Source: a virus. Taken from it: 64,000 nt of DNA. Where the stretch lies: positions 1 through 64,000 of IMG/VR virus record IMGVR_UViG_3300045738_002037; one strand, 5' to 3'. Both the position numbers and the translations under genes were made by a program. Under the pieces are notes generated by a model that worked only from the letters and a program-made list of their open reading frames with translations, ran no database searches and had not been told where the DNA came from. Numbering within the stretch: position 1 is the stretch's first letter; each line of letters begins with the position of its first letter. Of this stretch, positions 1 to 61,566 are shown piece by piece.

Positions 1-179
1 CAACAGCTAGAAACTACATCATCCCCAAGCCCGTATTCATCCTCAATGTTGTCCAGTGGATTCGTCGAAAGCGGTCGCCGATCTTTAGGGTAGAAAGTCC
101 GACCCGCAAAATTATGGCCAAATTCATGCGGATCTTCCGTAATGAATGCGGCAATATGTTTAATAGTTTTCTTATCCAT
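1..179 (-). CDS. ITEDP-leader protein (partial, runs off window); putative internal head protein
   Basis: Not in ORF track. ATG at 179 gives MDKKTIKHIAAFITEDPHEFGHNFAGRTFYPKDRRP..., open to the window edge. Confidence 0.8.
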   Translation of the reverse strand, partial: MDKKTIKHIAAFITEDPHEFGHNFAGRTFYPKDRRPLSTNPLDNIEDEYGLGDDVVSSC

Positions 180-192
180 TTTCTTGCCTATA

Positions 193-486
193 TTATTGTA
201 CAACCAACTTTTCCTGTTGATTCATCTGAAAACGCTTTCCAGAATCTTCGTCGACGATATACCAGTTGTGCATCTGGTTTGGATTCCATCGACGCATATA
301 CTCAACCGCATCTTTAAGCGATTTGAAATTAGCAAAGGCATCGTAAGAACCATTTGCGTGTTTATAAACTCGGAATTTATATCCACCAGGCTCCGGCATT
401 TTGCCCATTGCGGTTTTTTCAGGACCAAATTCATCCGGATCTTCCGTAATGAATGCAGCAATATATTTGATAGTTTTCTTATCCAC
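193..486 (-). CDS. ITEDP-leader protein, 97 aa
   Basis: Track ORF 193..765, but the leader (M)DKKTIKYIAAFITEDPDEF starts at GTG 486, which overlaps the upstream stop (GTGGATAA). Start reassigned on that basis. Confidence 0.75.
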   Translation of the reverse strand: MDKKTIKYIAAFITEDPDEFGPEKTAMGKMPEPGGYKFRVYKHANGSYDAFANFKSLKDAVEYMRRWNPNQMHNWYIVDEDSGKRFQMNQQEKLVVQ

Positions 487-1618
487 CGTGGGGACCCTCT
501 CTCCACGCCTCGCGGCCATAATATTCTCCTGCGTCCGGGCCAGCAGCACCGCCGCCTCTCGCCTGATGGTGCCAGGGTTCTGAGAGTGAGTCGTCTTCTC
601 TTGCCCCAAATTTTTTGTCTTGCCATGTGGCCCCGGTGCTTTGCGGCGGCCTGTCCAGTTGGCCTCTTCGCGGTACAGGCTTAACGGTAATCTGTTTAGC
701 GCCAGCTGATTTGGCAGAATCAATGGCGAATGATAGTTGACCAAGCAGCGGTGTGTCATTGACATTCAAATCTAAGTCCATCATATTTGCGCCTTTAAAC
801 AAAATCCACATGCCTTCGGGCTGCGCGTCAGATGTTAATAATTCTAAGGTATACTCTTCAGGAATATCAGAGCCACCCTGAAACTCATTAATGACTCCTG
901 CCCGCACTAGCCCCTCTCTCCACGCCTCGCGGCCATAATGTTCTCCTGCGTCCGGGCCAGCAGCACCGCCGCCGCCCGCCTGATTCTGCCAGGGTTCTGA
1001 GAGTGAGTCGTCACCGCCGCCCATCGCCTGATCCTGCCAGTGTTGATCGTGATCGTGCTGGGCGTCTTCTCTTGCCTGCAACTCGGTTGCTCCCCAATCG
1101 TTGGCACCTCCCCCTCCCTCATATATCCCCTCGGGTACCCCGGCATCCTGAAGCACCACCTCCAATGCTGGAGATGGCTTGGAGAGCGGTACGTCATCGC
1201 GATTATGCCAGCCGAGGCCAGCACGTTCCGATGCGGCGATAAACGGCTCTCCATCTTTAAGCACAAAATAAATTGGTTTGTACATTTCAGCAGTTCTCCG
1301 CGCATCTTCACTCCCGGTGTCATTGGGGTCATGTGGCGGATCGGGGTTAAAACACCACTTAGTTCCTTCCCCAAGTCTCATTATTTCCTCGACATCATCG
1401 ACGACTATTACTTCGTATGTAATATCTCTATTAGGCCCAACTTGCATAGTAGAAAGAACTTCACGTCCACCTTCCATACCAGGAAGAAGCCGTTGTCGTT
1501 CTTCTTGTTCCATAATATCTAACGGCCCGCCCGATACTTGTAGATCAGGACTAAATTCATTCGGATCTTCCGTAATGAATGCAGCAAGATGGTTAATAGT
1601 GTTCTTGTTCATTTCCAT
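479..1618 (-). CDS. ITEDP-leader protein, 379 aa, with GxGTxWC motif and internal duplication
   Basis: N-terminus MEMNKNTINHLAAFITEDPNEF; motif LGEGTKWCF; repeated DDSLSEPW...GREAWREG segment. Confidence 0.8.
   Translation of the reverse strand: MEMNKNTINHLAAFITEDPNEFSPDLQVSGGPLDIMEQEERQRLLPGMEGGREVLSTMQVGPNRDITYEVIVVDDVEEIMRLGEGTKWCFNPDPPHDPNDTGSEDARRTAEMYKPIYFVLKDGEPFIAASERAGLGWHNRDDVPLSKPSPALEVVLQDAGVPEGIYEGGGGANDWGATELQAREDAQHDHDQHWQDQAMGGGDDSLSEPWQNQAGGGGAAGPDAGEHYGREAWREGLVRAGVINEFQGGSDIPEEYTLELLTSDAQPEGMWILFKGANMMDLDLNVNDTPLLGQLSFAIDSAKSAGAKQITVKPVPRRGQLDRPPQSTGATWQDKKFGAREDDSLSEPWHHQARGGGAAGPDAGEYYGREAWREGPHGG
495..1012. repeat. ~101-bp direct repeat (495-595 and 912-1012)
   Basis: Near-identical copies encoding DDSLSEPW...AAGPDAGE.YGREAWREG. 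Confidence 0.9.
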
Positions 1619-1621
1619 TTG

Positions 1622-1933
1622 CTAATACTCCAAACCTGACTGAGACATATGTTCTATTGATTCAATATAAGATAAAAACTTTTGTGATTCCTCTCCCTGC
1701 CTTACGCTATCCGCTAACTCTCTTTTCTGGGCTTCTCTCTCTTGAGCATTTACCTTAATATCCGAATGGGAGAATGGCTGACCTGGAGTGACTCGTTTGT
1801 GCCCTGCTCGATCCACTCCACCCAGTTGGTCAAACGTCTCTTGGTCAAACGATCCAGTATTAAATTCATCCGGATCTTCCGTAATGAATGTGGCAAGATG
1901 GTCAATGGTGTTCTTATTCATTTTCTTATCCAT
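1622..1933 (-). CDS. ITEDP-leader protein, 103 aa
   Basis: MDKKMNKNTIDHLATFITEDPDEF; C-terminal half paralogous to 1968..2336. Confidence 0.8.
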   Translation of the reverse strand: MDKKMNKNTIDHLATFITEDPDEFNTGSFDQETFDQLGGVDRAGHKRVTPGQPFSHSDIKVNAQEREAQKRELADSVRQGEESQKFLSYIESIEHMSQSGLEY

Positions 1934-2116
1934 TTTTATTCTTCTTTCGCAAGAATGTTAGTCTAACCTAATACTCCAAACCTGACTGAGACATATGTTC
2001 TATTGACTCAATGTAAGATAAAAACTGTTGTGCGTGTTGGCCCTGCTTTACGATATCCGCTAACTCTCTTTTCTGGGCTTCCCTCTCTTGAGCATTTACC
2101 TTGATATCCGAATGGG
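1622..2116. repeat. ~149-bp direct repeat (1622-1770 and 1968-2116)
   Basis: Both copies encode HSDIKVNAQEREAQKRELAD...FLSYIESIEHMSQSGLEY*. Confidence 0.9.
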
Positions 2117-2336
2117 TGTGACCCGCTTCATCCTGCCTCTTCGCTTCCTCCGGGTCGTAGTAGTACTCTTTAATAGTGCCTTTAGGCGGTTGCAAGTTAA
2201 ATTCGCGCGGATCTTCCGTAATGAATGCGGCAAGCTGTTCGATGTCTTTCTTATTCATTTTCATTTTATTCTTCTTTATTTGATCTAGATCTTCATTAAG
2301 AACTTTATCAAGTTTTTGTTCAAATCGGCTGCTCAT
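1968..2336 (-). CDS. ITEDP-leader protein, 122 aa (first gene of the array)
   Basis: MSSRFEQKLDKVLNEDLD...MNKKDIEQLAAFITEDPREF. Confidence 0.8.
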   Translation of the reverse strand: MSSRFEQKLDKVLNEDLDQIKKNKMKMNKKDIEQLAAFITEDPREFNLQPPKGTIKEYYYDPEEAKRQDEAGHTHSDIKVNAQEREAQKRELADIVKQGQHAQQFLSYIESIEHMSQSGLEY

Positions 2337-2856: not shown

Positions 2857-3306
2857 ATGAAATTATCATTAATATCTGAATCTACGGGACGTGATAGGGT
2901 ATTTGCAGATCTATTGCATAAATTGCATGGCCAAGTACCCAATTCGTTGATATTATCGATCAAAAAACTTCACGATAAAAAGAAATCATATCATCCAAAC
3001 GCAGTAAACGTATCAAATCAAGAAATTTATCAACAGTTGTTGGGCGGCGAACGACTACTTGGAATATTAGAACCACATCTGGATGATGAAAACAATAGAT
3101 ACCCACCAAATGGTGTAAGTGATTGTGGCGTCGAGTCATTCCCATCCGAAGATGGGAATGAATATTTAGTAGGTCCTGTGGCCGCAAAGGGCCATGAACA
3201 ATTATGGCAAGATGTTAATGCTTTGCCAAGACCTTCGCATACGATGAATATCGCGTTAGGATTATTGTTTGGATATGATCCAATAGAAATTCAAAAATTT
3301 TTGTAG
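2857..3306 (+). CDS. Hypothetical protein with MKLSLISE leader
   Basis: 149-aa ORF; N-terminus nearly identical to that of 34662..35006 (MKLSLICE). Confidence 0.75.
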   Translation: MKLSLISESTGRDRVFADLLHKLHGQVPNSLILSIKKLHDKKKSYHPNAVNVSNQEIYQQLLGGERLLGILEPHLDDENNRYPPNGVSDCGVESFPSEDGNEYLVGPVAAKGHEQLWQDVNALPRPSHTMNIALGLLFGYDPIEIQKFL

Positions 3307-3388: not shown

Positions 3389-4978
3389 TTACAGATTCGA
3401 AACCGTAATAACACCATAGTAAAGGCCACCATCTTCGATCAACTTCTTGCCGTATCGGGTCATGATGCCCTTATTCGGCGTGAAGCTGTTCGGATCGAGG
3501 ACAGTCGGGGTCGACAACAGTGGAATATACGGAGCATAAAAGTAGCCCGCATCCAACACTGAATTACCCTTGAAGCCCATCAGAATCCGACAATTCGGGA
3601 AGAGTGGGTCCTTGTAGACCTTCATCTTACCCTGCAAGTTACCGACATTCATAATGCCGATGTCAACGCCTTCAGTCGTGAACGCGTCGCTTGCGCGGAA
3701 ATCATTGAGCTGCTCGAACTTGGAACAAACATCAGCGGATGTTACCATCCAGTTCGCAGGACCACGCAAGGTGGTTCTGTGGATGATGTTTGCGACTTCC
3801 AGAGTCTTGTAAAGCAACGCAATGTTACGATCAGTGAAGTTCACTGATGCGCCCGCTGCGGTGGCGAAGTTATGGTCAGCACGAATAGCTGCGGCGATAA
3901 TGAGATCATTAATGATTTCACGATCAATTTCCGCGACCATTTCATCGGCCATCAAGTCGGTTAACGTCGACTCGGCGTCGATGTTATGAACCGCCTTGAG
4001 GTCCTGTGCTGCTTCCAATGACCATGAAGTCTTCAGCTTACGAGTAACGGCAGCAACGCTGTCGCTATCGATGCTAAGAGTGACTTCCGGCTGGAAGGGG
4101 TTAGATTCCAAATCATACTCGTAATTAACGCGTGCAACGGAACCGGTCGGAAGACCGTCACCAGAAGCATCGAGTGTAATTTGAACAACGCCAGTAGCAT
4201 GATTAAATGTCGTAGCACCAGAAGTGGTGGTATCAACAGTAATAGCACTGGTAAAACCAGTCACGCTACCAATCAAAACCGTATCAGGATCGCCATCAGC
4301 ATCAAAGCTGACACGAAGCCCAGGAGTTACGTCAGCGCAAGCCGGATCAGCATTCTCGGCAGAGTCATAGACTTCAACCACTACCGTACCGGAAAGAACT
4401 GGACGATGAGCGAGTGTTGCCGAAACCAGCTTACCTTCAGTGCTGATCGTGGCGTCTTCGCCCTTAACTTCCTGAGAACTGTAGTACGGATCCAACGCCC
4501 AACCGTTCTGACGAGCAAAGCTCTGAGCGGTATTTTGACGCATGATCTGCGTACCAGCAGTCGTTTGGCCCTTAGTAAGAGCGTAACGATACCTGATGTA
4601 AAAAATTAAACTAGCAGGCTGACTCATGGGCTGAACGCCAACGAGATTGTCTGCAATCAACTTGGGATAGGACTTTCGGATCAGAGGGAGAGCAAACCGC
4701 GTAAAGTCGGCAATGTTTGCCGTAGTGGTTTGATCTTCCAAAATGACCGATCGGCCTTCGGGATTCCAAGCATTATACTGATTTTCAAGAAGAGCAGCCA
4801 TCATCCCGAACTTTTGCGTACTGATTTCTCGGCACTTGCTCAGAACTGGCGACCACTTCTTGACCAACTGGTTTCGCTTCGACTCATGTATAACTGCTGC
4901 CTTGTGGAGATCAGTTTGCTCCATGAGCGGGCGACCAGCTGTCCCTTCAGTCAGATGACGACGAGTAGGAAGAGTCAT
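3389..4978 (-). CDS. gp23: Major capsid protein (T4 gp23-like)
   Basis: LIADNLVGVQPMSQP, RKLKTSWSLEAAQDLKAVH, AEIDREII, GYFYAPYIPL, GIMTRYG motifs. Confidence 0.97.
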   Translation of the reverse strand: MTLPTRRHLTEGTAGRPLMEQTDLHKAAVIHESKRNQLVKKWSPVLSKCREISTQKFGMMAALLENQYNAWNPEGRSVILEDQTTTANIADFTRFALPLIRKSYPKLIADNLVGVQPMSQPASLIFYIRYRYALTKGQTTAGTQIMRQNTAQSFARQNGWALDPYYSSQEVKGEDATISTEGKLVSATLAHRPVLSGTVVVEVYDSAENADPACADVTPGLRVSFDADGDPDTVLIGSVTGFTSAITVDTTTSGATTFNHATGVVQITLDASGDGLPTGSVARVNYEYDLESNPFQPEVTLSIDSDSVAAVTRKLKTSWSLEAAQDLKAVHNIDAESTLTDLMADEMVAEIDREIINDLIIAAAIRADHNFATAAGASVNFTDRNIALLYKTLEVANIIHRTTLRGPANWMVTSADVCSKFEQLNDFRASDAFTTEGVDIGIMNVGNLQGKMKVYKDPLFPNCRILMGFKGNSVLDAGYFYAPYIPLLSTPTVLDPNSFTPNKGIMTRYGKKLIEDGGLYYGVITVSNL

Positions 4979-5014: not shown

Positions 5015-5740
5015 TTAAATAAGATCTTCATCCATGTCTTTGGCTATGTCGGGAATCCCAAAACCGTCACCGGACGTGCCAGTAACATGGGATTCTTCAC
5101 GTTGCTTCGTAGGATTAGGATCTTGATTTTCCAAAATCGTGGGTCTGGTAGTTACCGGCTTACCAGAACGCCGTTTCGCATCAATTCGACGCGATCTTTT
5201 AGAAGGAGCGCTCTCTTCAACTGTCGATTCAACTTGCACCTGCAGATTCTTATGAATTGTAGACTCTAAGGATCTATTTTTCTTAAGAATCTTTTCTGCC
5301 AGCGCAGTCTGTCGATTAGCAGTTTCAACAGCTAACTTCCTCTCCTCATTTACTGCCTTAACTTGCCGCTTCAACTTCTTTAATTCGGCTTCAATTTCTC
5401 CATCGGGTCGACCATTTGGCTCAATTCCTTCCACAAGGGAAACAATGTCCTTGAGCTTGGCCAGCGCCTGGGATTCTTTAATTGCCGATTGACGAGTTAA
5501 AACAGCCTCCACAGCAGCGGATTTGGTTTCACAGAAAATCTGCACGCGACGAGCCAGTTCTTGCTTATGAGTCTCTGTCTCTTCGACGCAAATCTTTTTG
5601 GCTTCTTCGATTTTTGCTGAGTACTCAGACTCGAACTGCTCTCGGAGCGTTTTCTTGTAGCTTTCTAAAGATTCGCAGATCTGTTGGGACATTTCAGGCT
5701 TTACACCAGATTTTTCCAACAATGCTTTAATCTTTTTCAT
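5015..5740 (-). CDS. Prohead scaffold/core protein (gp22-like)
   Basis: Coiled-coil, Glu/Lys-rich; lies between protease and capsid genes as T4 gene 22 does. Confidence 0.7.
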   Translation of the reverse strand: MKKIKALLEKSGVKPEMSQQICESLESYKKTLREQFESEYSAKIEEAKKICVEETETHKQELARRVQIFCETKSAAVEAVLTRQSAIKESQALAKLKDIVSLVEGIEPNGRPDGEIEAELKKLKRQVKAVNEERKLAVETANRQTALAEKILKKNRSLESTIHKNLQVQVESTVEESAPSKRSRRIDAKRRSGKPVTTRPTILENQDPNPTKQREESHVTGTSGDGFGIPDIAKDMDEDLI

Positions 5741-5833: not shown

Positions 5834-6571
5834 CTATTTAAGATCAAAATAATTGTTTATCTCCTTAACTAACATTCGTTCGTAGGTAACCCTATCGAAC
5901 TTACCGCGAGCCTTCCGAATCGGGCGTAACCTATTATTCAAACCCTCTTGAATATTAAGTATTGCTCCATCAACCGAAGGTTCTGCGACAGCATCCCAAG
6001 TTACAAATGAATAACCAGGCATTACTTTGTATTTTTCTTGACCGCCGGATTCAACAACTTCCATGTCGCCAACACCGCGAGAAGAGATCCCAACGCGAAT
6101 TTTGTGCTCAAATAATCCTCGAAGACAAGCACCACACGGTAATCGATGAAGAATTTCAGCTTCACCGTAGACTTTGCGGCCTTCCATCCAAATCTTCGTA
6201 ATCAGATGGCTAACCCTGTCTAAATGAATTTTAGCATCGGCGGGGTGATCGTATTCACCCATAACGCCACGCTTGCCAATATCTTCTTGAATATTTTCAA
6301 CGGCTGGCGCTAAGACATCTTTGGTACTATAAACTCGGCCATTGGCGTTTTCTCTATCGCCTTCCTGGAACAGTCCAGTAACTCTTAGCGACGGCTCTTC
6401 ATTACCGTTTATACCTTCTACCACCACATTTTTAATATCTAGCACATTAAAGGCATATGTGTCACGAATCAACTGCATTCCTGCAGGAATTTCACCTGTT
6501 TCAGCGATTATTTGGCGGTTGATTGGGGTAATCCCCGCCATTGTCACTTTACCACGTCTTGTAGGCAGCAT
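5834..6571 (-). CDS. gp21: Prohead maturation protease (gp21-like)
   Basis: NANGRVY, GEYDHP (catalytic His), GISSRGVG (catalytic Ser), WDAVAEPS. Confidence 0.95.
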   Translation of the reverse strand: MLPTRRGKVTMAGITPINRQIIAETGEIPAGMQLIRDTYAFNVLDIKNVVVEGINGNEEPSLRVTGLFQEGDRENANGRVYSTKDVLAPAVENIQEDIGKRGVMGEYDHPADAKIHLDRVSHLITKIWMEGRKVYGEAEILHRLPCGACLRGLFEHKIRVGISSRGVGDMEVVESGGQEKYKVMPGYSFVTWDAVAEPSVDGAILNIQEGLNNRLRPIRKARGKFDRVTYERMLVKEINNYFDLK

Positions 6572-9970: not shown

Positions 9971-11923
9971 TTATGAAGATGTTTTGTCTACAGGCAAATC
10001 ATCTTCAGTAATAATAGAAGATTGAACAATGGGTACCGACCCACCCATTAGAACTCTTTTTATTTCTTTAATTACACTATCACGCTCTTCTTCATCAACA
10101 GACCATTCCACAAGAAGGCCCGGATCATTCGGGTCATATGCACTGTCTTCAGAAATCGTTTTAGTAAGACCATCTAATTCTTTTATTTCCATTAAATGGT
10201 CATAACCGTTTACTATTTCAGGTTTTTCATTATCACCATTGCCAAATCTATCAGCCCATTTCTCAAGTATCTTTTTAACTTCTTTCCTTTGTCCTTGGCG
10301 GGCAAGTTCCATTATTATACGTTTTTCAGCCTTAATATCTAAACCTTCTTCGGCTTCTTCACCACCACCACCGCCGCCCATCAAAGCCTCCAAACCACCT
10401 GTGTCTCCACCCTCTTCTCCACCCTCTTCTCCACCTTCCATGCCTTCTTCTCCACCTTCCATGCCTTCTTCTCCACCTTCCATGCCTTCTTCTCCACCTA
10501 TTCCCATTGCTCCTGCAGGGCCGCCGCCGCCGGGACCACCATTTTTGGCCATATCTTCCATATCTTTTAATTCTTCAATTTCATCTGGCGACAGATCAGT
10601 GAATCTTGTCACAATCCACTCTTTCGGAAACCACCCAAGGTCTTTAAGATCGGCCATAACTCCAACGCGAGTTTGCCATGTTTCTATTCTATACAATTCT
10701 TCCATCGCAGAAGTAGCTGTCAACGCAAGGCTAAACTTTTTAATATCTTCAGCAGGATATCCACGCAATGCCAAATGAACAATGGCTACTTTAGTTAAAC
10801 CAGAAGACACTTCCCTTTGGATCCACTGAACAGATTTGGCAAATTCTGCATGTGATTGAGACAATGATTTTTCATTGGCTTCGCCAGACCCATCGCCAAT
10901 TCCAACCCTAGAAAATGGGATCTTCATTGGGGCAATCATTTTCTTCTTAAAATATTCGATATCTGCTATTTGATCTAAATTTTCAGCACCCGGAAGAACA
11001 TCAATATCTGGGCCAGTGCCGTCTGGTCTACGTGGCAAGAAGAAATCATCTTCTTGAATTAATGGAGAATATCGTTCATCAAATGTGCCGGTTGCTGGAT
11101 TATAAAATCGTTGCCGTTTAAATTGCCTCGCAATCATTTGCATGTATTCAGGCACTTCTTTTGGTGGGATCAAGCCAACCGGTATAATAAACTTCCTCTT
11201 TTCTGGAGCACGCGTAATTCTATAAATTAATGCGGCATCTTCCATCAATCGTAATTGTTTAAATGCTTTTCGGCCACCATCCATAATACTGCGGCCATAT
11301 GGATGATAAATATTCTCAAAACTAGTCAACCGCAAATGCATAACTTGCCATGGATGCATAAAAGTTGGTTCTTGCGTAAATTCATCTTGATAAAAGAACC
11401 CAACTAAATCACCATATCGCGTTTCTACACGTGTAAAATTATAAACATTTATAAATTTTACAGAACCAATGCCATCTCTGTTTTTATCCGGTATTATCTC
11501 AGCCGGAAAGTCACCATACTTACATAAATATCTTATAGCCGGACGACAATAATTGTCCCACTGCAATATGTTAAAAAATAAATCTTCCAATTCTTTCTTA
11601 ATTCTTGAACTTCCCGCTCGAATCACTAATGTGTGCTTTCGTTCAGGGTCAACTAACGAAGTTTCGTCAGCATAAAGATCCAAAGCGAGTGATATCTCGC
11701 CCATTTGATCCATTTGTTCATAATCTTTATAGCGTTCTAACCTATTAATTTGTAGGTTAGTTTGATCAAGAATTGCCGCTTGCTGATTAAAATCTAAAAA
11801 TTCTGCGCCAGCGGTTAGCCTATCCAAAGACGTTTGATCTTGGAATATTCTATCTGCTTGATATATTTTATGCTGACGCGTAAACGCGCGCAGTCTGTCA
11901 AATAACAGCCAATTGCTGGGCAT
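9971..11923 (-). CDS. gp20: Portal protein (gp20-like)
   Basis: PYGRSI, QLRLMEDAALIYRITRAPEKR, EDDFFLPRR, LPGAENL, DIEYF motifs. Confidence 0.96.
   Translation of the reverse strand: MPSNWLLFDRLRAFTRQHKIYQADRIFQDQTSLDRLTAGAEFLDFNQQAAILDQTNLQINRLERYKDYEQMDQMGEISLALDLYADETSLVDPERKHTLVIRAGSSRIKKELEDLFFNILQWDNYCRPAIRYLCKYGDFPAEIIPDKNRDGIGSVKFINVYNFTRVETRYGDLVGFFYQDEFTQEPTFMHPWQVMHLRLTSFENIYHPYGRSIMDGGRKAFKQLRLMEDAALIYRITRAPEKRKFIIPVGLIPPKEVPEYMQMIARQFKRQRFYNPATGTFDERYSPLIQEDDFFLPRRPDGTGPDIDVLPGAENLDQIADIEYFKKKMIAPMKIPFSRVGIGDGSGEANEKSLSQSHAEFAKSVQWIQREVSSGLTKVAIVHLALRGYPAEDIKKFSLALTATSAMEELYRIETWQTRVGVMADLKDLGWFPKEWIVTRFTDLSPDEIEELKDMEDMAKNGGPGGGGPAGAMGIGGEEGMEGGEEGMEGGEEGMEGGEEGGEEGGDTGGLEALMGGGGGGEEAEEGLDIKAEKRIIMELARQGQRKEVKKILEKWADRFGNGDNEKPEIVNGYDHLMEIKELDGLTKTISEDSAYDPNDPGLLVEWSVDEEERDSVIKEIKRVLMGGSVPIVQSSIITEDDLPVDKTSS
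10404..10498. repeat. Coding tandem repeats (GGEEGME, 21 bp x3, plus GGEE 12-bp units) in the portal C-terminal region
   Basis: TTCTCCACCTTCCATGCCTTC repeated. Confidence 0.85.
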
Positions 11924-49731: not shown

Positions 49732-52700
49732 TTAGGGGGCAGTATTAGCTAAGTTTTGCCCTATTATAAACCCATCAAATTTTGTTGCTGTCCTACAAAT
49801 AAATCCATAAACATCAGCCACATCTGTATCCGCAGTCGCTACTGGAGTAATGCCTCCAGCCCAATTAACTACCGCAGCGGCGGGGCTAGTGCCTGTGCCT
49901 GAAGTTACAGTCCAAGCAACAGTCCTTTCTTCAGAATCATCATTTTGAATTCTCACAATAATCCTTTGTCCAACGGTAACATTATGGAATATAACCGCAT
50001 CAATGTCGTCGTCTTCTAAAGTGACTTCATGGTAATTTCCTGTAGCCCAATCTATTGTTATATCTGTATCATCTTCCGATATCGTTCCAGAACCAACGGA
50101 ACCAATTATGGCCTTGCTAAAGATGACCCCGCCGTCAGCATCAATAGCAATGGCATCAGTGTCAGAAGCAGATCCAATATTCCCTCCGTCAGAAATGACC
50201 ACACTAGCCAGAGTTCCTACTGATGTAATATTAGGCTGGGCGGCAGTCGTAACCGTAGCCGCCGTTCCAGTGGTATTTTGATTTAACGTTGCTACCCTGG
50301 CAGCAGCAACAGTGCCAGAAGATATATTGGAGCCATTCAAACTGGCCAAGCTGGCACCGCTTCCTGAAAATATTGTTGCCGCTAAAATTCCCGTGCTAGA
50401 ATTGAAAGTTAAATTACTTCCAGTTTTTGGTTCTTGATCGCCAGTCGCAGTGGTAACAAAGAGCGGAAAACATGTCGTATCGGAAGATTCATCGGCCACA
50501 GTGATATCCGTGGGAGTACCGCCTCCGCCACTAGCTGTAAGCTGCGAACTTGACACTGAAATTCCCGAACCCGCAATGGCAGTAAGGAAATTATCGATAC
50601 TCTCTATAATCACATCGCCGGTAGCACCGCCATCCAAAAAGACCATATGATCAGCAGTTTGTAAAACATCCCCGGCAGAAGCCAGTCCCAACAATTTTGT
50701 TGCAAGAGTGTCGATGCCAACTCTTTTTAGAGTCCCTCCATCAGAATATAAGACTTCATCGGCAGCAACTAATCCACTAGTGATCTCATCAAACCCAGAA
50801 ATACAGTCATCGTTAAGCATTGAATAGTGTACTGCATCAGCTTGAATAGTTGCTGTTCCTGTTACATTACCAGAGCCATCAAATGCCGCAGATGTCCATA
50901 CAACATCTCCAGTCATACCGATTGTTCTAGTAGCAGCCAAAGCTGTGGCAGTATCAGCATTCCCAGTCGTATCTTGATTCAATGTCGCTACTCTAGCAGC
51001 AGCGACAGTCCCCGTAGAAATGTTACTTCCATTCAGGGCGGTCAGGCTGGCCCCGCTGCCTGAGAACAGGGTGGCTGTAACTGTTCCTGTACTAGGATTA
51101 TATGTTAATCCTGTGTCAGTCTCAGCACCTTGTGAACCAGTTGCTCCATCCACAAAAACCGGATATACAGTTTCGTCAGCAGTATTGTTGGCACTTACTG
51201 TAAAATTATCAGCAGTTCCTGTCGTGTCCTGATTTAAAGTTCCAACAGTAAAATCAAGAGTATTATCGTCATCTTGATAGGCGACGGTTATACCGCTTTC
51301 AGTATTACTACCAACCATCGCGCCAACGGTGTCAGCAATATATTCACTAGAAACAGACAAAACACTATTACTAGCAGTAAGGCCAGTGCTTGATTCTGTC
51401 CCAGCAAATAATGTTGCTAAAGAAGCTATCGTAGTTAACTGTTCAGTAGAACCATCAGAATCTAAAGTCGCTAATTTATCGCCATTAGCAGGCGTTACAT
51501 CGCTAAACTCAGAAAAATCTGTTGTAATAGTTATTGTTGTAGAAGAACCACTTGTGTCAATGCCCGCACCGCCTGCAATAGTAAACCCAGCATCGCCAGA
51601 ACCAACTGACAATGCTCCGCCAGTATCGCCAGTTAAAGACACGGCGGTTATATCGCCACCACCGCCGCCGCCGCTAACTTCTTCCCAAGCTGGCGCTGAA
51701 CCAGCGCCTGTAGCAGTTAATACGTGGCCATCAGTTCCTGCTGCTAATTTAGTAAGCACGCCGCCAGAATTACGATAATAAATATCTCCCTCTGCATCGC
51801 TGCCCAGTGTTACAGTAACGCCAGCCAACACAGCCCCAGTCGATAGCGTCCCGGACGTAACAGTGCCAATCGTGGCTAAATTCGCTGCCGATGTAACAGC
51901 AGCCTGAGTAGCTCCTGTCACAGTAGCAGCAGTTCCAGTAGTATTTTGGTTCAATGTCGCCACCCTTGCGGCGGCCACTGTGCCGGAGGAAATATTGCTA
52001 CCATTTAGACTGGTTAGGCTCGCTCCGCTACCAGAAAATACTGTGGCTGTGACGGTCCCCGTGGAGGGGTTGTAGTGCAAGTCTCCATCAGACTGTATAC
52101 CGATACTCGCAGAACCGTCTAAATCGTCCACAAATGTTATTGCGTGATTGGAGTCGTCTGATTCACTATCTGAGACGATGACATTGGTAGCAATAGTAGC
52201 TGTAGCAGCATTGCCAGAAACCGACGTTTGGTCACCAGTATTGTTTCCCGAAATACTGGCGTCAGAAAGTGCTGTACTTAACTGGGCTACGGTAAACGAA
52301 CCCAAAACAGCAGCATTGCCGGTAGATGTAATATGTCCCGTTAGATCGGCATTTGTTGTTACTGTGTCAGCATTGCCGGCGACATCGCCGGTTAAATCGC
52401 CTACAAAAGACGTTGCGGTTAATGCTCCGCTGCTAGAATCAAATGCTAGATTGCTTCCAGATTTTGGTCCTAAATTTCCCGTTGCGGCAGTAACAAATAG
52501 CGGAAAACATGTCGTATCAGAAGACTCATCAGCCACAGTTACAGTAGTCGCAATAGCCGCAACACCAGTCGTATTTTGGTTAAGAGTTGGGAACGTGCAG
52601 TTTGTTAGAGTTCCAGATGCGGGTGTTCCCAATACTGGAGTAACTAAAGTAGGGCTAGTGGCAAAGACTAATGTCCCACTTCCTGTTTCGTCCGATATTA

Positions 52701-54510
52701 CTCCTGCTAGTTGCGCAGAAGTTGTAGCAGCCATAACTGACAAGTTATTAGTAGTATAAACGCCGTTTGTCACAGTATCTGCGTTACCAGTCAAGGCTCC
52801 TTCTATGTCCGCAACTAAAGTAGCTTTTGCATAACCTGCTCCAGAAATGTTTACTGTGGTAGTGGGGGCAGCCTGTAAGTCTTTAAATAGCTTAAACTTG
52901 CCAGAGTCATTGGCATCTCTAAACAATCCCGCATAAAGATCCTGACTTCCAGAGGTGTCATAGAGACCATAAAAACCTATGTCCACAGCATCGCTGCCGT
53001 TGTTGCCACTAGCTAAAATTATTAAGGGATCTTCAACACTAAGAGTGGCCGTATTAACTGTAGTGGTGTCCCCGCTAACAGTTAAATCCCCTAAAATTGT
53101 TACATCGTCTGGAAGCCCAATAGTTACTGTCCCAGCCGCTTCAACGACAGTAACCTCATTGGCCGTTCCAGAAAAAGTCATGGTTCCCCCCAAAGCAACT
53201 GGGGAGGTATTTGAACCATCGCTAACGGTAATAGAAGAATTAGCCAACATTGTGTTGCTAACAGTTCCGCTATCTGTAGTATAAACACCGTTTGTTACTG
53301 CGCCTGCTGTTAAGCTTGCCGCAGTTCCGCTTATGTTGGTTCCTACTAATGCAGAGGGAGTTCCTAGTGCTGGAGTAACCAAAGTAGGATTAGTTCCAAA
53401 GACTAATGCCCCGCTTCCTGTTTCGTCCGATATTACTCCTTTTAATTGAAGAGACGTTGTAGCAGCCATGACTGAAAGGTTGTTGCTAGTATAAACGCCG
53501 TTTGTCACTGTATCAGCGTTCCCTGTGACATCGCCAGTTACATCACCCACAAAAGATGTTGCGGTTAACGCTCCGCTACTAGAATCAAATGCTAGATTGC
53601 TACCAGATTTTGGGCCTAAATCGCCAGTCGCGGCGGTGACAAATAATGGAAAACATGCCGTGTCGGAAGATTCATCGGCCACAGTGACAGCCGTCGCAGT
53701 GCCACCGCCAACAGAAGCCCAAGCTGGATTAGCACTAGTGCCTTGCGTTTTTAAAAAATGACCATTTGTTCCAGCCCCAAGTCTCACATAATTAGTGCCA
53801 TCATAATACATGATGTCACCCTGAGCGTCTGAACCAAGAGCAATCATTGTTCCATCAACAGAGTTGGTTTGAATATTGGCCACAGCGGTTACATTGCCAG
53901 AACCGTCAAAACCTGCAGATGTCCATACAACATCTCCAGTCATACCGATTGTTCTAGTAGCAGCCAAAGCTGTGGCAGTATCAGCATTGCCGGTAAGTGA
54001 TCCTATAAAAACAACGCTAGTTATTGATGTAGCCTCAGTTACCACACCAGCATCAACGTTTATAGTTCCATCTAATACAATGGCACTACCGGCTGCAGGA
54101 GTAATATTAACCGCACCAGCGGTGGTTGAAATAGTAATAGCAGCATCTCCAGCCGTTATATCATCAGCAGCAACACTGCCGCCGCCGCCGCCACTGGCCG
54201 CTATAGTTGTATCCGTAATAGTTAAATTATCACCAATCGACAACCATTTAAAAGTATCAGCGGTTTCATCCCAGAATAAAACCCTATCACCGCCAGGATC
54301 AGATAATGATTCTAAACCAAGATGACTTAATGATAATGTGTTGCCAGATGCAGACAATCCAGATCCAGCAATAATAACATCCGAAAGGGCCATCGTATGG
54401 CCCTCGAATTTTTTAGTAGTAGAATTATATTTTAATATCTGCCCACTTGTGACAGACCCGATATCCTTGGCGTCGACTATTTGTCGAACACCGACTGGTC
54501 TGATATCCAT
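49732..54510 (-). CDS. Long tail fibre / fibre-like virion protein
   Basis: 1592 aa, T/A/G/S-rich; repeated GNADTATAL, FDGSGNV and LSVEDPLI.L modules; C-terminal IDW..GN...L...IQ...R...W...WAGG..P domain. Confidence 0.85.
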   Translation of the reverse strand: MDIRPVGVRQIVDAKDIGSVTSGQILKYNSTTKKFEGHTMALSDVIIAGSGLSASGNTLSLSHLGLESLSDPGGDRVLFWDETADTFKWLSIGDNLTITDTTIAASGGGGGSVAADDITAGDAAITISTTAGAVNITPAAGSAIVLDGTINVDAGVVTEATSITSVVFIGSLTGNADTATALAATRTIGMTGDVVWTSAGFDGSGNVTAVANIQTNSVDGTMIALGSDAQGDIMYYDGTNYVRLGAGTNGHFLKTQGTSANPAWASVGGGTATAVTVADESSDTACFPLFVTAATGDLGPKSGSNLAFDSSSGALTATSFVGDVTGDVTGNADTVTNGVYTSNNLSVMAATTSLQLKGVISDETGSGALVFGTNPTLVTPALGTPSALVGTNISGTAASLTAGAVTNGVYTTDSGTVSNTMLANSSITVSDGSNTSPVALGGTMTFSGTANEVTVVEAAGTVTIGLPDDVTILGDLTVSGDTTTVNTATLSVEDPLIILASGNNGSDAVDIGFYGLYDTSGSQDLYAGLFRDANDSGKFKLFKDLQAAPTTTVNISGAGYAKATLVADIEGALTGNADTVTNGVYTTNNLSVMAATTSAQLAGVISDETGSGTLVFATSPTLVTPVLGTPASGTLTNCTFPTLNQNTTGVAAIATTVTVADESSDTTCFPLFVTAATGNLGPKSGSNLAFDSSSGALTATSFVGDLTGDVAGNADTVTTNADLTGHITSTGNAAVLGSFTVAQLSTALSDASISGNNTGDQTSVSGNAATATIATNVIVSDSESDDSNHAITFVDDLDGSASIGIQSDGDLHYNPSTGTVTATVFSGSGASLTSLNGSNISSGTVAAARVATLNQNTTGTAATVTGATQAAVTSAANLATIGTVTSGTLSTGAVLAGVTVTLGSDAEGDIYYRNSGGVLTKLAAGTDGHVLTATGAGSAPAWEEVSGGGGGGDITAVSLTGDTGGALSVGSGDAGFTIAGGAGIDTSGSSTTITITTDFSEFSDVTPANGDKLATLDSDGSTEQLTTIASLATLFAGTESSTGLTASNSVLSVSSEYIADTVGAMVGSNTESGITVAYQDDDNTLDFTVGTLNQDTTGTADNFTVSANNTADETVYPVFVDGATGSQGAETDTGLTYNPSTGTVTATLFSGSGASLTALNGSNISTGTVAAARVATLNQDTTGNADTATALAATRTIGMTGDVVWTSAAFDGSGNVTGTATIQADAVHYSMLNDDCISGFDEITSGLVAADEVLYSDGGTLKRVGIDTLATKLLGLASAGDVLQTADHMVFLDGGATGDVIIESIDNFLTAIAGSGISVSSSQLTASGGGGTPTDITVADESSDTTCFPLFVTTATGDQEPKTGSNLTFNSSTGILAATIFSGSGASLASLNGSNISSGTVAAARVATLNQNTTGTAATVTTAAQPNITSVGTLASVVISDGGNIGSASDTDAIAIDADGGVIFSKAIIGSVGSGTISEDDTDITIDWATGNYHEVTLEDDDIDAVIFHNVTVGQRIIVRIQNDDSEERTVAWTVTSGTGTSPAAAVVNWAGGITPVATADTDVADVYGFICRTATKFDGFIIGQNLANTAP

Positions 54511-56425: not shown

Positions 56426-56791
56426 TTATTTTTGCGTTTTTAGCTGAGAGGGCAATTTATCATCTGGTATGCCCGTATATTTAAAATCTTGCAATTTATA
56501 ATTTTTATAAAACAAATTAATAAGATTTACTAAAATATCAAAATTACATGAAAATGGCTTTGTTATAACCATAGCCACAGACGATTCGGGATTGACATAA
56601 TGAACAAAATGTTCAACATTAAACAATACTTTGTCTGCCACACTTGAACTAATATCCGTGAAGATAATCATGTCGCCATTTTTAGGAGATTCGTCAAATA
56701 GTACGTCTCCCACAGTGAAACTGCATGACGGCCCGTCATCTGCATGGCCAGTAATTAAATCAATCCTGACTGGTAACGTAATCGTTATCAT
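56426..56791 (-). CDS. Hypothetical protein
   Basis: 121 aa; ATGA overlap with the upstream gene. Confidence 0.65.
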   Translation of the reverse strand: MITITLPVRIDLITGHADDGPSCSFTVGDVLFDESPKNGDMIIFTDISSSVADKVLFNVEHFVHYVNPESSVAMVITKPFSCNFDILVNLINLFYKNYKLQDFKYTGIPDDKLPSQLKTQK

Positions 56792-57423
56792 TTCTTGTTT
56801 TTTACTGTTGACCTATTATCAGAATTCTCTACAGTAGACCTATTTCCAGAATTTTCCGTAGTAGATGATCTATTATCAGAATTCTCTACAGTAGACCTAT
56901 TTCCAGAATTTTCCGTAGTAGATGATCTATTATCAGAATTCTCTACAGTAGACCTATTTTCTGTTGTTGATCTGTTTCCAGAATTAACATTGCTGTCTCT
57001 AATAATAGTAATATTACTGTCCCTAATATTATAATTTACGACAGTAGTTGGCGAACTAACCGATGGCCTAGCTGTATTTCTTTGGCCCGATGTATTTCTA
57101 GCACGTTGAATATGAGCGCCGATGATATGTGATTGCATGCGCGACAATCCCATACGATAATCATACCCATAGCTAATACCACCACTATTATATGGATTGC
57201 GCCAAATTGGGTCGGGAAACATCGTAGGAACACCATATCGTTGCGCAAAATTGCGCTCTTGAAATTGATACTGCCCTATAGCACGCGCGCCTGGAATAGA
57301 ATAAATACCCCCATCCGGGCCAATATAATGCATTCTTGGGTTAAATCCGGGCGGATACTGAGCAAAAACAGTGCCAGTACACAAAAGAACAAACAGCACA
57401 GACAGCACAGACAAAATTTTCAT
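56788..57423 (-). CDS. Secreted low-complexity protein with Sec signal peptide
   Basis: MKILSVLSVLFVLLCTGTVFA|QYPPG; Y/G/P-rich middle; S/T/N/E/R repeat tail. Confidence 0.7.
   Translation of the reverse strand: MKILSVLSVLFVLLCTGTVFAQYPPGFNPRMHYIGPDGGIYSIPGARAIGQYQFQERNFAQRYGVPTMFPDPIWRNPYNSGGISYGYDYRMGLSRMQSHIIGAHIQRARNTSGQRNTARPSVSSPTTVVNYNIRDSNITIIRDSNVNSGNRSTTENRSTVENSDNRSSTTENSGNRSTVENSDNRSSTTENSGNRSTVENSDNRSTVKNKK
56810..56960. repeat. 60-bp tandem repeat, about 2.5 copies (NRSTVENSDNRSSTTENSG-type unit)
   Basis: Lines 56821-56880 repeat with a fixed offset through 56959. Confidence 0.8.
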
Positions 57424-57511: not shown

Positions 57512-58147
57512 ATGGAAATTGACCCTAAACAAATAGCTAAGATGATAACGGAAGATCCGGATGAATATGCGGATTTCGAAGATGCTGATGAGTTCGAAAG
57601 CGGCGATCCAGACGGATATACACATTTCCACCCGGCGACCAAAACACTTTTTGAGTTGGGCGAATGCGAAAATTGCGGCAGAGATGTACAAGAAGCAAAT
57701 TCAGTAGGATATGTCAACCCGGACGACGAAATGATGATGATGGGGTACCATGAATATGAAGGTTCGTTACCTCCAGAAATCGCATGGGACGATGCTCTTA
57801 GTAGTGCCACTTGTGGAGAGTGCGGCCATGATCCCACAAGAATATTGGGGGATTTCAAAATAGAGACAAGCAGAATTCCTCCCAGGTCGTCCTGGCTTCA
57901 TGAAGAGAAACATCAGCTACGCCTACTCCGTCCCCGTCAAGGCCCAATTATTCGGAACATACAATGGTCGCCCGCAGCAATCACTATTCAATTTCCCAGC
58001 GGGGAAATCTGGGAATATGTCATTTATGAAAATCGATGGCTGCAAGATCTTTTAAAAAGCCATCGTCGAAATGTAGGGCGTCTCGTGGCTGCTATGAAAA
58101 GAATCCCAAATATTGAAGTTCAACGCGTGTTGGATCTTGAGTCTTAA
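57512..58147 (+). CDS. ITEDP-leader protein with zinc ribbon and KTSC-like C-terminus
   Basis: Start reassigned to ATG 57512 (MEIDPKQIAKMITEDPDEY); CENC...CGEC; WSPAAITIQFPSGEIWEYV. Confidence 0.7.
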   Translation: MEIDPKQIAKMITEDPDEYADFEDADEFESGDPDGYTHFHPATKTLFELGECENCGRDVQEANSVGYVNPDDEMMMMGYHEYEGSLPPEIAWDDALSSATCGECGHDPTRILGDFKIETSRIPPRSSWLHEEKHQLRLLRPRQGPIIRNIQWSPAAITIQFPSGEIWEYVIYENRWLQDLLKSHRRNVGRLVAAMKRIPNIEVQRVLDLES

Positions 58148-58152
58148 CTAAA

Positions 58153-59484
58153 TTATGTGTAAGTCTCTTCACCATATTCGTCACCATATTCGTCACCATA
58201 TTCGTCACCATATTCGTCAACTTCGAATTCTTCAGGATCTTCAATTAAGGCATTGAGCAAAGAACTCGCTTCTTCCGGATTTTCAATAACAGCAGCGACA
58301 ATCTTATGTAAATGATCGGGTTCTTGTAATGCCAAGGCGGTCACAAGGTCGGCTAAAGAAACGCCTTGAGGTTTCACCTTTAAGAATCGACGCCACAGTT
58401 CTGGCCCAACTTGAATTAAATAAGGTTCATGCCGTATGTCATCAGCATGTGAAAGAACCTGCTCAGTTTCTTCACCATTTAAGTTTCCAAGACCATGGTA
58501 ACTTAAAAGTTCAGCAACACCCTTGCTCATTTCTTGGGCCAACACTGGAAAAACCACACCACGCGCATCTATTTTATAATCATCACTATCTCCGTCTTGG
58601 TTTACATTAGCTGAACCCACAGCAGACATGCCTAGCATAGCAAACATAGCTGGAATATCAATTAGCCAATACATCTGAACCGACAACGATGAAATCCGAT
58701 TATATAAATCCAATAATTCTGGGTCTATTTTCTCTATTTCTTTATCCACCACGTGATGCATCGTCATCATAGCATGCACTGCAGATCCTTGCGTCATTGT
58801 GTTCATGGTCAAACGCTTGTTAATCTGCTTACGCATATTTTCATCGAGTTCTGGCTTCTCTTTTCCTTCTTCATCCTCTTCATTTTTTTCAACATCAGAA
58901 GTAAGACGACCTTCTAGCATCTCTTCCGGGATTCCCCAAATTTGAACTGTTATCTTTTTGGCCAACGCGATAAGTTCATCTTGGTGTTCTGATTCTTTCT
59001 GTACGATTTGGTGCATAATACGCATCATATTTGCGGGGTTGGCGTTTAGACTAGTCACTCTGTCAGTAACATGTTCCCAGGCTCCACGTGACAACTTATC
59101 GCCTAACAAAGCAAGAACCGGATGTTTGGCAAACAGATGCTCTCGATTACTGGGAAGATCCTGCCAAAAGCTTTGTATAGACGGATGCGTTTCATCTTCA
59201 TAGGCTTCGGCTAGAATTGAAACCATGATGTCATTCCCCGACTCCATACAATTCTTGGGCTGCACCTTGCGTTTTGGAACTGGGGGGTGAAAAGGATCTG
59301 GCTTAGAAGGCTTTTCTTGCGGTGGCCTAGATGGGGCTGGCGACGGATAATCCGTACGTCTAGATGGAGAAGGAGCTTCCCTTGCAGGAGCCGGTATAGC
59401 CGTAGCCTCTACATCTTCTACCTCTTGCATTTCTTTTGCAGCAAGAGCTTCATCCAGTTTTTGTTTTAAATTTTTTGATTTCAT
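58153..59484 (-). CDS. Hypothetical phage protein, 443 aa
   Basis: Pro-rich N-region, INKRLTMNTMTQGSA, C-terminal LIEDPEEF and DEYG repeats (12-bp unit at about 58168-58218). Confidence 0.8.
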   Translation of the reverse strand: MKSKNLKQKLDEALAAKEMQEVEDVEATAIPAPAREAPSPSRRTDYPSPAPSRPPQEKPSKPDPFHPPVPKRKVQPKNCMESGNDIMVSILAEAYEDETHPSIQSFWQDLPSNREHLFAKHPVLALLGDKLSRGAWEHVTDRVTSLNANPANMMRIMHQIVQKESEHQDELIALAKKITVQIWGIPEEMLEGRLTSDVEKNEEDEEGKEKPELDENMRKQINKRLTMNTMTQGSAVHAMMTMHHVVDKEIEKIDPELLDLYNRISSLSVQMYWLIDIPAMFAMLGMSAVGSANVNQDGDSDDYKIDARGVVFPVLAQEMSKGVAELLSYHGLGNLNGEETEQVLSHADDIRHEPYLIQVGPELWRRFLKVKPQGVSLADLVTALALQEPDHLHKIVAAVIENPEEASSLLNALIEDPEEFEVDEYGDEYGDEYGDEYGEETYT

Positions 59485-60741: not shown

Positions 60742-61566
60742 TTATGCAACATTTTGATGTCCGTTTATGGTGGGAGCAATAACTCTTAATTTTTGCAAAG
60801 CCAATGTTTCTATTTGCCTTATTCTTTCTTTGGTTACCCCTATTTTATCTCCTACTTCCTGCAATGTTAATGGCTCACAGCCAAGACCAAATCGCATTTC
60901 AATTATTCTGCGCTGCCGATCATCTTTAAGCGTATTTACTAACTTTTCAATATATTTGGCGATACTATTGATTCTCAATTCTTCCTCGTATGGCTCAGAA
61001 CAATCAGGTACACTGTCTATAGAATAATCCTCAGATTCTCTAATCACATTGCCATTAGCAGAATTTATAGCCTTAATAATTGTGCCTAATCTTTTCTTGT
61101 TCCAACCCAATTTCTTCAACAATGCGTTTGTGTCAATAATACCATCGTCCATTCTAACAGCATTAACAGCTCTTTCATATTGACGCACATTACTATTGGC
61201 ATTCATAGCACGTGAAACAGTGTTGTTGCAATCATTCATACGCTGCACATTAGCTCTAATTCGCCAATATGCATATGTTCCAAATCTTACTGACTTGCTA
61301 AAATCAAAATTTCTTATGGCATCATATATACCACAAATTCCTTCTGATAACGCATCGTCAAAATCTATGTGACGCGCTTTAAATTGATTTACTACTTTAA
61401 CAACCCAAAGAATATTAGATAAAATAAGAATATGTTGGGCTTGTTTATCTCCATTTTTAGCTTTTCTGATATATTCTTTTTCTAATTCAGGATCTTCAAT
61501 AAAATCACACTGTGCTTTTCTAATAAAAGACTGAATGTAATCTGAATATATCACGCGGCACTCCAT
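60742..61566 (-). CDS. Sigma70-family RNA polymerase sigma factor (regions 1.2-4)
   Basis: LILSNILWV, DALSEG..G...AI.NFD.SK..RF.TYA.W.I, RFGL...LTLQEVG...GVTKERIRQIE..AL.KLR. Confidence 0.93.
   Translation of the reverse strand: MECRVIYSDYIQSFIRKAQCDFIEDPELEKEYIRKAKNGDKQAQHILILSNILWVVKVVNQFKARHIDFDDALSEGICGIYDAIRNFDFSKSVRFGTYAYWRIRANVQRMNDCNNTVSRAMNANSNVRQYERAVNAVRMDDGIIDTNALLKKLGWNKKRLGTIIKAINSANGNVIRESEDYSIDSVPDCSEPYEEELRINSIAKYIEKLVNTLKDDRQRRIIEMRFGLGCEPLTLQEVGDKIGVTKERIRQIETLALQKLRVIAPTINGHQNVA

Follow-up and report, generated by a model that had tools for sequence, protein, structure and literature searches.

In-frame leader repeats and payload exchange in a five-gene array of an uncultured giant T4-like phage

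The stretch analysed here consists of 64,000 nucleotides (nt) of viral DNA, positions 1 to 64,000 of the IMG/VR record IMGVR_UViG_3300045738_002037; this whole stretch, called the window below, is the first 64 kb of a viral contig of 156.7 kb with an estimated completeness of 43%. Its source is an uncultured giant T4-like phage of a deep-branching lineage, the best match of its capsid protein (39% identity) coming from an uncultured phage of 595 kb. At the left end of the window, five tandem open reading frames (ORFs)—E, D, C, B and A in the order of transcription—begin with a common leader, behind which each carries a payload of its own, and sequence comparison with relatives supports recombinational swapping of these payloads. 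The leaders share a 20-mer, for which an exact search of the window returned the five copies listed in the preliminary description of this DNA, with 0 matches over 100 shuffles and 0 expected; no further site with up to three mismatches was found in the whole window. Read on the minus strand, the 20-mer covers the last two bases of an Ala or Thr codon followed by the codons for F-I-T-E-D-P, 12–20 residues from the start of each ORF. The coordinates of all these features are given in Table 1.

Table 1. Features of the array, the adjoining head module and further leader-bearing ORFs (window coordinates unless the contig is named; aa, amino acids; ↓, candidate cleavage site)
Feature	Position	Strand	Remark
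Gene A	1..179	-	truncated at contig end; complete form 117 aa with Cys-rich payload (L017/P0028)
20-mer core, gene A leader	129..148	-	exact match; F-I-T-E-D-P codons
Gene B, 97 aa	193..486	-	GTG start overlapping gene C stop
20-mer core, gene B leader	436..455	-	exact match; F-I-T-E-D-P codons
Gene C, 377-379 aa	479..1618	-	leader, domain 1, Gly-rich tail, domain 2, Gly-rich tail
GC-rich repeat at gene C end, 101 nt	495..595	-	95% identity to 912-1012
20-mer core, gene C leader	1562..1581	-	exact match; F-I-T-E-D-P codons
Gene D, 99-103 aa	1622..1933	-	leader, own middle segment, C-terminal block in common with gene E
3′ block of gene D, 149 nt	1622..1770	-	91% identity to gene E 1968-2116
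20-mer core, gene D leader	1871..1890	-	exact match; F-I-T-E-D-P codons
Gene E, 96-122 aa	1968..2336	-	likely true start near 2258-2264
20-mer core, gene E leader	2208..2227	-	exact match; F-I-T-E-D-P codons
Major capsid protein, Gp23 family	3389..4978	-	candidate propeptide cut V-I-L-E↓D, residues 78-82
Scaffold-like protein	5015..5740	-	called solely by position between protease and capsid gene
Prohead protease, Peptidase_S77 (T4 gp21 family)	5834..6571	-	family match
T4-type portal protein	9971..11923	-	I-I-T-E↓D-D nine residues from C-terminus
Remote leader-tagged gene, 211 aa	57512..58147	+	subfamily-2 leader; core 12-mer at 57548-57559
ORFs of the shorter leader class	contig 35006, 81598, 95837, 129941, 130588; window 2857		M-K-L-(S/N)-x-(I/L)-x-x-E start

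The leader as a whole is a 75-nt repeat of 77–84% identity with the perfect 20-nt core inside it. Two other repeats are present in the array, namely the 3′ block shared by genes D and E (91%) and the GC-rich repeat of gene C (95%), so that the divergence of the flanks of the 20-mer stated in the preliminary description holds only in part. Since an independent assembly (L017) is 100% identical across window positions 1–456, spanning two of the cores, the array is not an assembly artefact, and since a SpoVG-like gene follows gene A there, the array consists of exactly five genes. The two domains of gene C exist as separate leader-tagged genes in the relative L015; in the window both end in one common tail unit (window 479–1200), and the Gly/Ala/Pro-rich repeat segments of this region reach 60–65% GC in a genome of 38.5% GC.

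Behind orthologous leaders, the payloads of close relatives differ, and chimeric junctions are located within the core or immediately 3′ of it. The backbone of L015—protease, scaffold, Gp23 and DUF2061—is 91.7% identical to the window at the nucleotide level, and the same variant is present as L016 and, from another sample, as L013; its array, however, has only three genes, followed by a dehydrogenase. A third configuration is found in L035, in the order E-type gene, D-type gene and dehydrogenase. The leader and the C-terminal block of gene E thus enclose three different middle segments, those of the window, L015 and L035, the last being unrelated to the other two. With three array configurations on a backbone of ~92% identity, the locus is polymorphic among close relatives. 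When the E and D slots of the window are aligned with L015, homology covers the upstream context and the leader and breaks down 9–10 nt past the 20-mer, and gene 2 of L015 continues into the start of the gene C payload at 92% identity. This base-level comparison of the slots indicates that the window has one additional core-to-core unit relative to L015, made up of the D payload, the intergenic region and the C leader.

The informative sites, numbered relative to the 20-mer, place the junctions more closely. In gene 2 of L015 those at −2 and −1 are D-type and those from +20 on C-type, so that the 20-mer brackets the junction; the leader upstream of the 20-mer is a patchwork of C and D types. 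Gene 3 of L015 is a three-way mosaic, with A-type sites as far as −7, B-type sites between −2 and +35 and C-type sites starting at +39. The suggestion that the 20-mer is a crossover site where payloads become fused behind the leader is therefore supported by gene 2, and the rearrangement expected among relatives was indeed observed; breakpoints within the 20-mer, on the other hand, were found in gene 2 but not in the E slot (~9 nt downstream) or in gene 3 (about 35–39 nt downstream). The other array repeats—the D/E 3′ block and the tail repeat of gene C—have been used in recombination as well. Two points weigh against reading too much into these junctions: differing payloads by themselves force breakpoints near a conserved leader, so that the weight rests only on the informative-site mosaics and the orthologous upstream context, and three genomes do not allow the direction or the number of recombination events to be inferred.

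Modules exist either as separate tagged genes or as in-frame fusions at leader motifs. A 552-aa ORF at contig positions 132301–133959 contains three in-frame leader motifs; its residues 333–399 are 63% identical to a free-standing tagged gene of 77 aa (P0024), with whose leader its internal junction aligns. The second module of this ORF is homologous to the first module of another protein (P0043), in which different modules come after. The payload of gene B belongs to a widespread small family, the members of which either lack a leader, carry that of the other subtype or begin with an unrelated N-terminus rich in Asn. Its homologues on other metagenomic contigs (P0063–P0074) often start with M-x-N-L-V-Y-N-T-D-M and an Asn-rich stretch, which may be the leader of another lineage.

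At the protein level, the 20-mer appears as the nucleotide core of an N-terminal leader of 14–25 codons with the pattern hydrophobic-x-x-(F/M)-I-T-E-D-P-x-E. Besides the five array genes, at least 12 further genes of the contig carry it; 17 leaders were counted on the contig, 15 of them at ORF N-termini. A 12-mer of the core has 13 exact copies on the contig, and its remote copy at 57548–57559, as had been pointed out before, is real and also lies in an ORF N-terminus, on the plus strand. Two leader subfamilies can be distinguished, the array type, found also on a gene at 94.9 kb, and a second type (...I-A-K-M-I-T-E-D-P-D-E...) present on 11 genes including the one at 57512. While I-x-E-D is invariant in the family, further acidic boxes recur after the first one, namely N-P-L-D-N-I-E-D-x-Y and E-Y-x-D-L-E-D-A-D-E-F. 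A profile of 16 leaders run against 1.8 billion representatives matched 60 proteins with diverse payloads, the match beginning within residues 1–3 in 52 of the 60 and in a few at residues 6–25 or internally. Neither the locus nor the leader was matched by deposited phages in megablast or tblastn searches, and no cultured phage carrying the tag was found among them; of two pattern scans of IMG/VR, one was empty and the other returned nine chance matches inside unrelated proteins.

A shorter leader class, M-K-L-(S/N)-x-(I/L)-x-x-E, is present on six ORFs and ends in I-x-E. In another genome (P0059), a leader of the shorter M-K-L-S type directly precedes an I-T-E-D-P leader, in tandem. One of the six, an ORF of 149 aa at window 2857–3306 on the plus strand, starts with M-K-L-S-L-I-S-E and separates the array from the capsid gene, running opposite to both; L015 does not have it, owing to an indel of ~470 nt in a region otherwise 87–92% identical.

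The synonymous identity of the core exceeds what the peptide needs, as the preliminary description held, and this is evident within the genome. Minor synonymous codons make up 3 of 79 positions in core columns vs. 48 of 153 in the flanking conserved columns (Fisher 2e-7, the paralogs being non-independent), pairwise codon identity is ~92% in the core vs. about 60% in the leader flanks, and the core has ~8-fold fewer synonymous variants than the leader outside it. Almost no variation is seen in the core codons (ACG 15/15, GAA 17/17, GAT 15/17, CCG 16/17 and the next GAT 13/13), even where they are minority codons of this 38.5% GC genome, such as ACG (16% of Thr), CCG (23% of Pro) and TTC (19% of Phe). 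Both the varying array content of close relatives and the lower synonymous divergence of the core thus speak for payload swapping.

This uniformity does not extend to relatives. The three cores of L015 differ at synonymous sites, and the distant relative L021, with eight tagged genes within 5 kb, encodes I-T-E-D-P-D in all of them with mixed Thr, Glu, Asp and Pro codons. It should be noted that L021 is regarded as kin on the basis of a common, unusual split of the DNA polymerase III alpha subunit, a weaker sign than head genes would be. In the present contig this protein is divided into two distant ORFs (~86–88 kb and ~145 kb; L038, L037), as in L021, and a replicase of this kind is not what is usually found in a phage whose head is of the T4 type. 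Because the codons of the distant relative vary freely, the peptide is the unit under selection, and the nucleotide identity reflects homogenisation within the lineage. The option of recent duplication or gene conversion, raised earlier for the core, is likewise supported by its homogenised synonymous sites and by the mosaics of L015. From these patterns we infer that the leader copies recombine by gene conversion and unequal crossing-over on a homology block of roughly 30–75 nt, a process that would both hold the core identical and place payloads behind the tag.

As to the function of the tag, its surroundings are of importance. A head module in the T4 gene order adjoins the array: large terminase, portal, a protein of 1102 aa, S77 protease, scaffold-like protein and Gp23, with the families PF03420, PF07068 and PF07230 found next to the array in the T4 order. 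The V-I-L-E↓D of the capsid protein lies between blocks aligning to residues 42 and 82 of T4 gp23, the cut in T4 being at residue 65. The scaffold-like protein has several (L/I)-x-E sites, including T-I-L-E↓N, and a basic C-terminal patch.

In T4, the internal proteins (IPs) enter the prohead core by means of an N-terminal capsid-targeting sequence (CTS) of 10–19 residues, which is then removed by gp21; in the tag of IPIII, targeting depends on residues 4 and 7, and processing on residues 8 and 10 (PMC9026906). For Alt, cleavage is reported at I-T-E-6 and L-T-E-619 (PMC5694885), and the IPI propeptide ends in I-T-E (T4 sequence record). Counted from the cut, the T4 positions are P7, P4, P3 and P1, which are occupied here by L/I, F/M (also L), I and E, conserved across the family; the invariant I-(T/S)-E of the tag corresponds to the gp21 consensus (L/I)-x-E, with hydrophobic P7 and P4. 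By analogy, it seems rather probable that the tag works like the T4 capsid-targeting sequence, i.e. as an address tag combined with a protease site. The N-terminal tag, the invariant I-x-E-D, the adjoining head module and the T4 I-T-E sites all argue for this, as do the V-I-L-E↓D at the expected propeptide boundary of the phage’s own capsid protein and the I-x-E ending of the shorter leader class. According to such a scheme, the scaffolding core would be bound by a short amphipathic helix of the tag, so that the protein is docked there, the S77 prohead protease would then cut after I-T-E, also separating fused modules, and the acidic mature proteins would travel with the DNA into the host. A protein of 443 aa encoded at window 58153–59484 on the minus strand has at its end a leader-like L-I-E-D-P-E-E-F and, behind it, four D-E-Y-G repeats in tandem, a C-terminal tag motif recalling the C-terminal processing of T4 Alt.

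The likeness to T4 IPI, IPII, IPIII and Alt consists in unrelated proteins having a common N-terminal tag that ends in I-x-E (PMC9026906, PMC5694885, PMC3012670, PMC12373910), in the hydrophobic P7 and P4 and in the S77 protease, scaffold and Gp23 encoded alongside. It extends to the DNA, T4 ipII and ipIII having 30 identical leader nucleotides and a common 5′ untranslated region followed by divergence (T4 record). In the passage of PMC4122927 that cites Repoila 1994, the palette of T4 internal proteins varies between related phages and its shuffling is proposed without a mechanism. There are also clear differences. No sequence homology to the T4 CTS or IPs was detected, Pfam and PHROGs giving no family matches; the tag is longer here, its pre-cut segment comprising 13–19 residues and being followed by conserved acidic boxes; T4 has 3–4 tagged genes, whereas at least 17 are present here on about 43% of the genome; the T4 payloads are basic, whereas those found here are acidic and often zinc-finger-like; and modules are concatenated here in frame at tag motifs. 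Cleavage and packaging of the tagged proteins are, moreover, putative. Lacking both the T4 CTS/IP homology and basic payloads, the system is an analogue of that of T4 and not a member by descent.

Several observations tell against a capsid-targeting role. The (L/I)-x-E is a three-residue motif and common by chance. The acidic boxes past the predicted cut are as conserved as the part preceding it, a finding not accounted for by a propeptide that is simply removed. T4 internal proteins are basic, whereas the predicted mature payloads are acidic, 12 of 14 having a computed isoelectric point (pI) of 4.1–4.7 against a proteome median of 5.9 (D 4.7, E 5.1 and B 6.9). Most of the tagged genes are located amid genes for replication and recombination (Rad50-like, Mre11-like and helicase), not among head genes, and most of them lack the GGAG ribosome-binding site seen at the head genes. 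A more elaborate version, which we put forward only tentatively, would make the tag a two-part cargo address, composed of a cleaved N-terminal helix and retained acidic boxes that pair with the basic patch at the C-terminus of the scaffold. The DNA encoding the tag would at the same time be a dedicated joint for in-frame recombination, and the phage would build, and constantly reshuffle, a library of injected effectors, several dozen in number, acidic and rich in zinc fingers, among them polyproteins that are separated into their parts within the head.

The strongest competitor, although it appears unlikely, is that the tag is a shared, recombining address label with a destination other than the capsid: a recognition site for a modifying enzyme, as in ribosomally synthesized and post-translationally modified peptides (RiPPs), a docking site for a host or phage factor, or part of a functional acidic N-terminal module, for instance one that mimics DNA. 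The swapping of payloads described above would not be affected by this. The conserved acidic boxes past the putative cut, the acidic and often Cys-rich payloads and the tagged clusters among replication genes would suit such a label. RiPP-type precursor families of the prochlorosin-like kind combine a conserved leader with a hypervariable core, and the resemblance includes often Cys-rich payloads, many scattered copies and leader conservation at the DNA level. Unlike those precursors, the tagged genes have no linked maturase that could be found, carry a head-protease-type site in the leader and adjoin head genes, and their payloads, which are folded domains, reach 540 aa—the range of 60–540 aa being far above RiPP core size. 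No radical-SAM gene was detected on the contig (PF04055, no match), which represents only ~43% of the genome, and no enzyme recurs beside tagged genes in this contig, L018, L019 or L021, the neighbours—Rad50-like, Mre11-like, helicase and glycosyltransferase genes—being non-recurrent. Finally, the I-T-E, the hydrophobic register and the position by the head module all fit the T4 system.

The payloads themselves are most commonly of one type, an 8-Cys module in the style of a cross-brace zinc finger, with sub-threshold hints of FYVE and IBR. No payload scored above the family threshold in Pfam or PHROGs, where zinc-finger hints remained sub-threshold; the ESM Atlas gave no usable match for gene C, and the AlphaFold model of the Cys-rich payload is poor (pLDDT 58). 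No shared motif was seen upstream of the tagged genes. A T4 late promoter was considered for TATAAATA, located 25 nt upstream of gene E, and rejected, the motif showing no enrichment (33 sites vs. ~25 expected) and being absent upstream of the head genes.

The array could also be a plain recent tandem duplication, the 20-mer being just the part that has not yet diverged and having no role in recombination. Duplication does occur in the array, as witnessed by the D/E 3′ block and the internal repeat of gene C, but this account is improbable, given that the synonymous sites of the flanking leader are far more diverged than those of the core, that the same core codons are found in two leader subfamilies spread over 155 kb, and that relatives have chimeric leaders and payloads, the mosaics of which already point to conversion or crossover. 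Least probable, and largely refuted already, is that the 20-mer functions as a nucleic-acid element—a site bound by a protein or RNA (the preliminary description had considered an RNA/DNA binding site), a small hairpin or a regulatory signal within the coding sequence—since the rare codons fixed at synonymous sites and a possible stem of 4 bp with a 3-nt loop, lengthened by flanking bases in some copies, are outweighed by the synonymous variation among the L015 cores, the many codon combinations for the same peptide in L021, a stem broken in two copies of this genome, structures that vary among the five array copies and fold no better than shuffles (z-scores −1.8 to +0.9), no Rfam match above threshold and a contig without a tRNA for the core codons. 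The fold and Rfam results led to an RNA structure of the core being dropped, as were phage tRNAs as an explanation of the rare codons, the sole tRNA of the contig being Arg(TCT). This tRNA (154558–154631) is positioned 17 nt upstream of a leader-tagged Cys-rich gene (154648–155088).

With payload swapping at the leader as the preferred explanation, two further systems deserve comparison. PeSL-mediated modular shuffling also employs short repeats flanking non-essential genes as crossover points, and the crossovers lead to insertions, deletions and replacements between close relatives (PMC2839356). PeSLs, however, are intergenic units of a sigma-70-like promoter and a stem-loop terminator, whereas the repeat is coding sequence here, so that every exchange yields an in-frame tagged protein; when PeSL-type signals were looked for in the array, the counts of promoter-like and terminator-like elements equalled those of shuffles. 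The ejection and inner-head proteins of the giant phages phiKZ and SPN3US include many head-internal paralogs, which resemble the tagged proteins in having conserved N-termini and multiple (here putative) cleavage sites; their propeptides are cut by the prohead protease, and a targeting role has also been proposed for them (PMC5694885). They differ by an A/S/G-x-E motif, an S80-type protease and propeptides that often exceed 100 residues, as against S77 and I-x-E here.

Three other proteins of the window may be recorded. A protein of 1592 aa (49732–54510, minus strand) has long internal repeats, phrases similar to ‘TVADESSDT(A/T)CFPLFVT.ATG’ recurring four times, and is probably a fibre. An ORF of 211 aa (56788–57423, minus strand) has a signal-peptide-like N-terminus and C-terminal tandem repeats of ~19 aa rich in Asn, Ser and Thr. 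A phage-encoded protein of the sigma-70 family with regions 2 and 4 is located at 60742–61566 on the minus strand.

Based on the above results, the natural variants described here show, at base resolution, the exchange and fusion of payloads at leader-coding DNA, the shuffling of the T4 palette having been proposed in 1994 without a mechanism. They suggest that a capsid address tag can also be a recombination joint, each swap giving a correctly tagged protein. If the tag loads cargo, the proteins injected by this lineage would be numerous, quickly changing, acidic and rich in zinc fingers; if this is true, such injected proteins would be candidate anti-defence factors, and the tag would offer a simple way of listing them in metagenomes.

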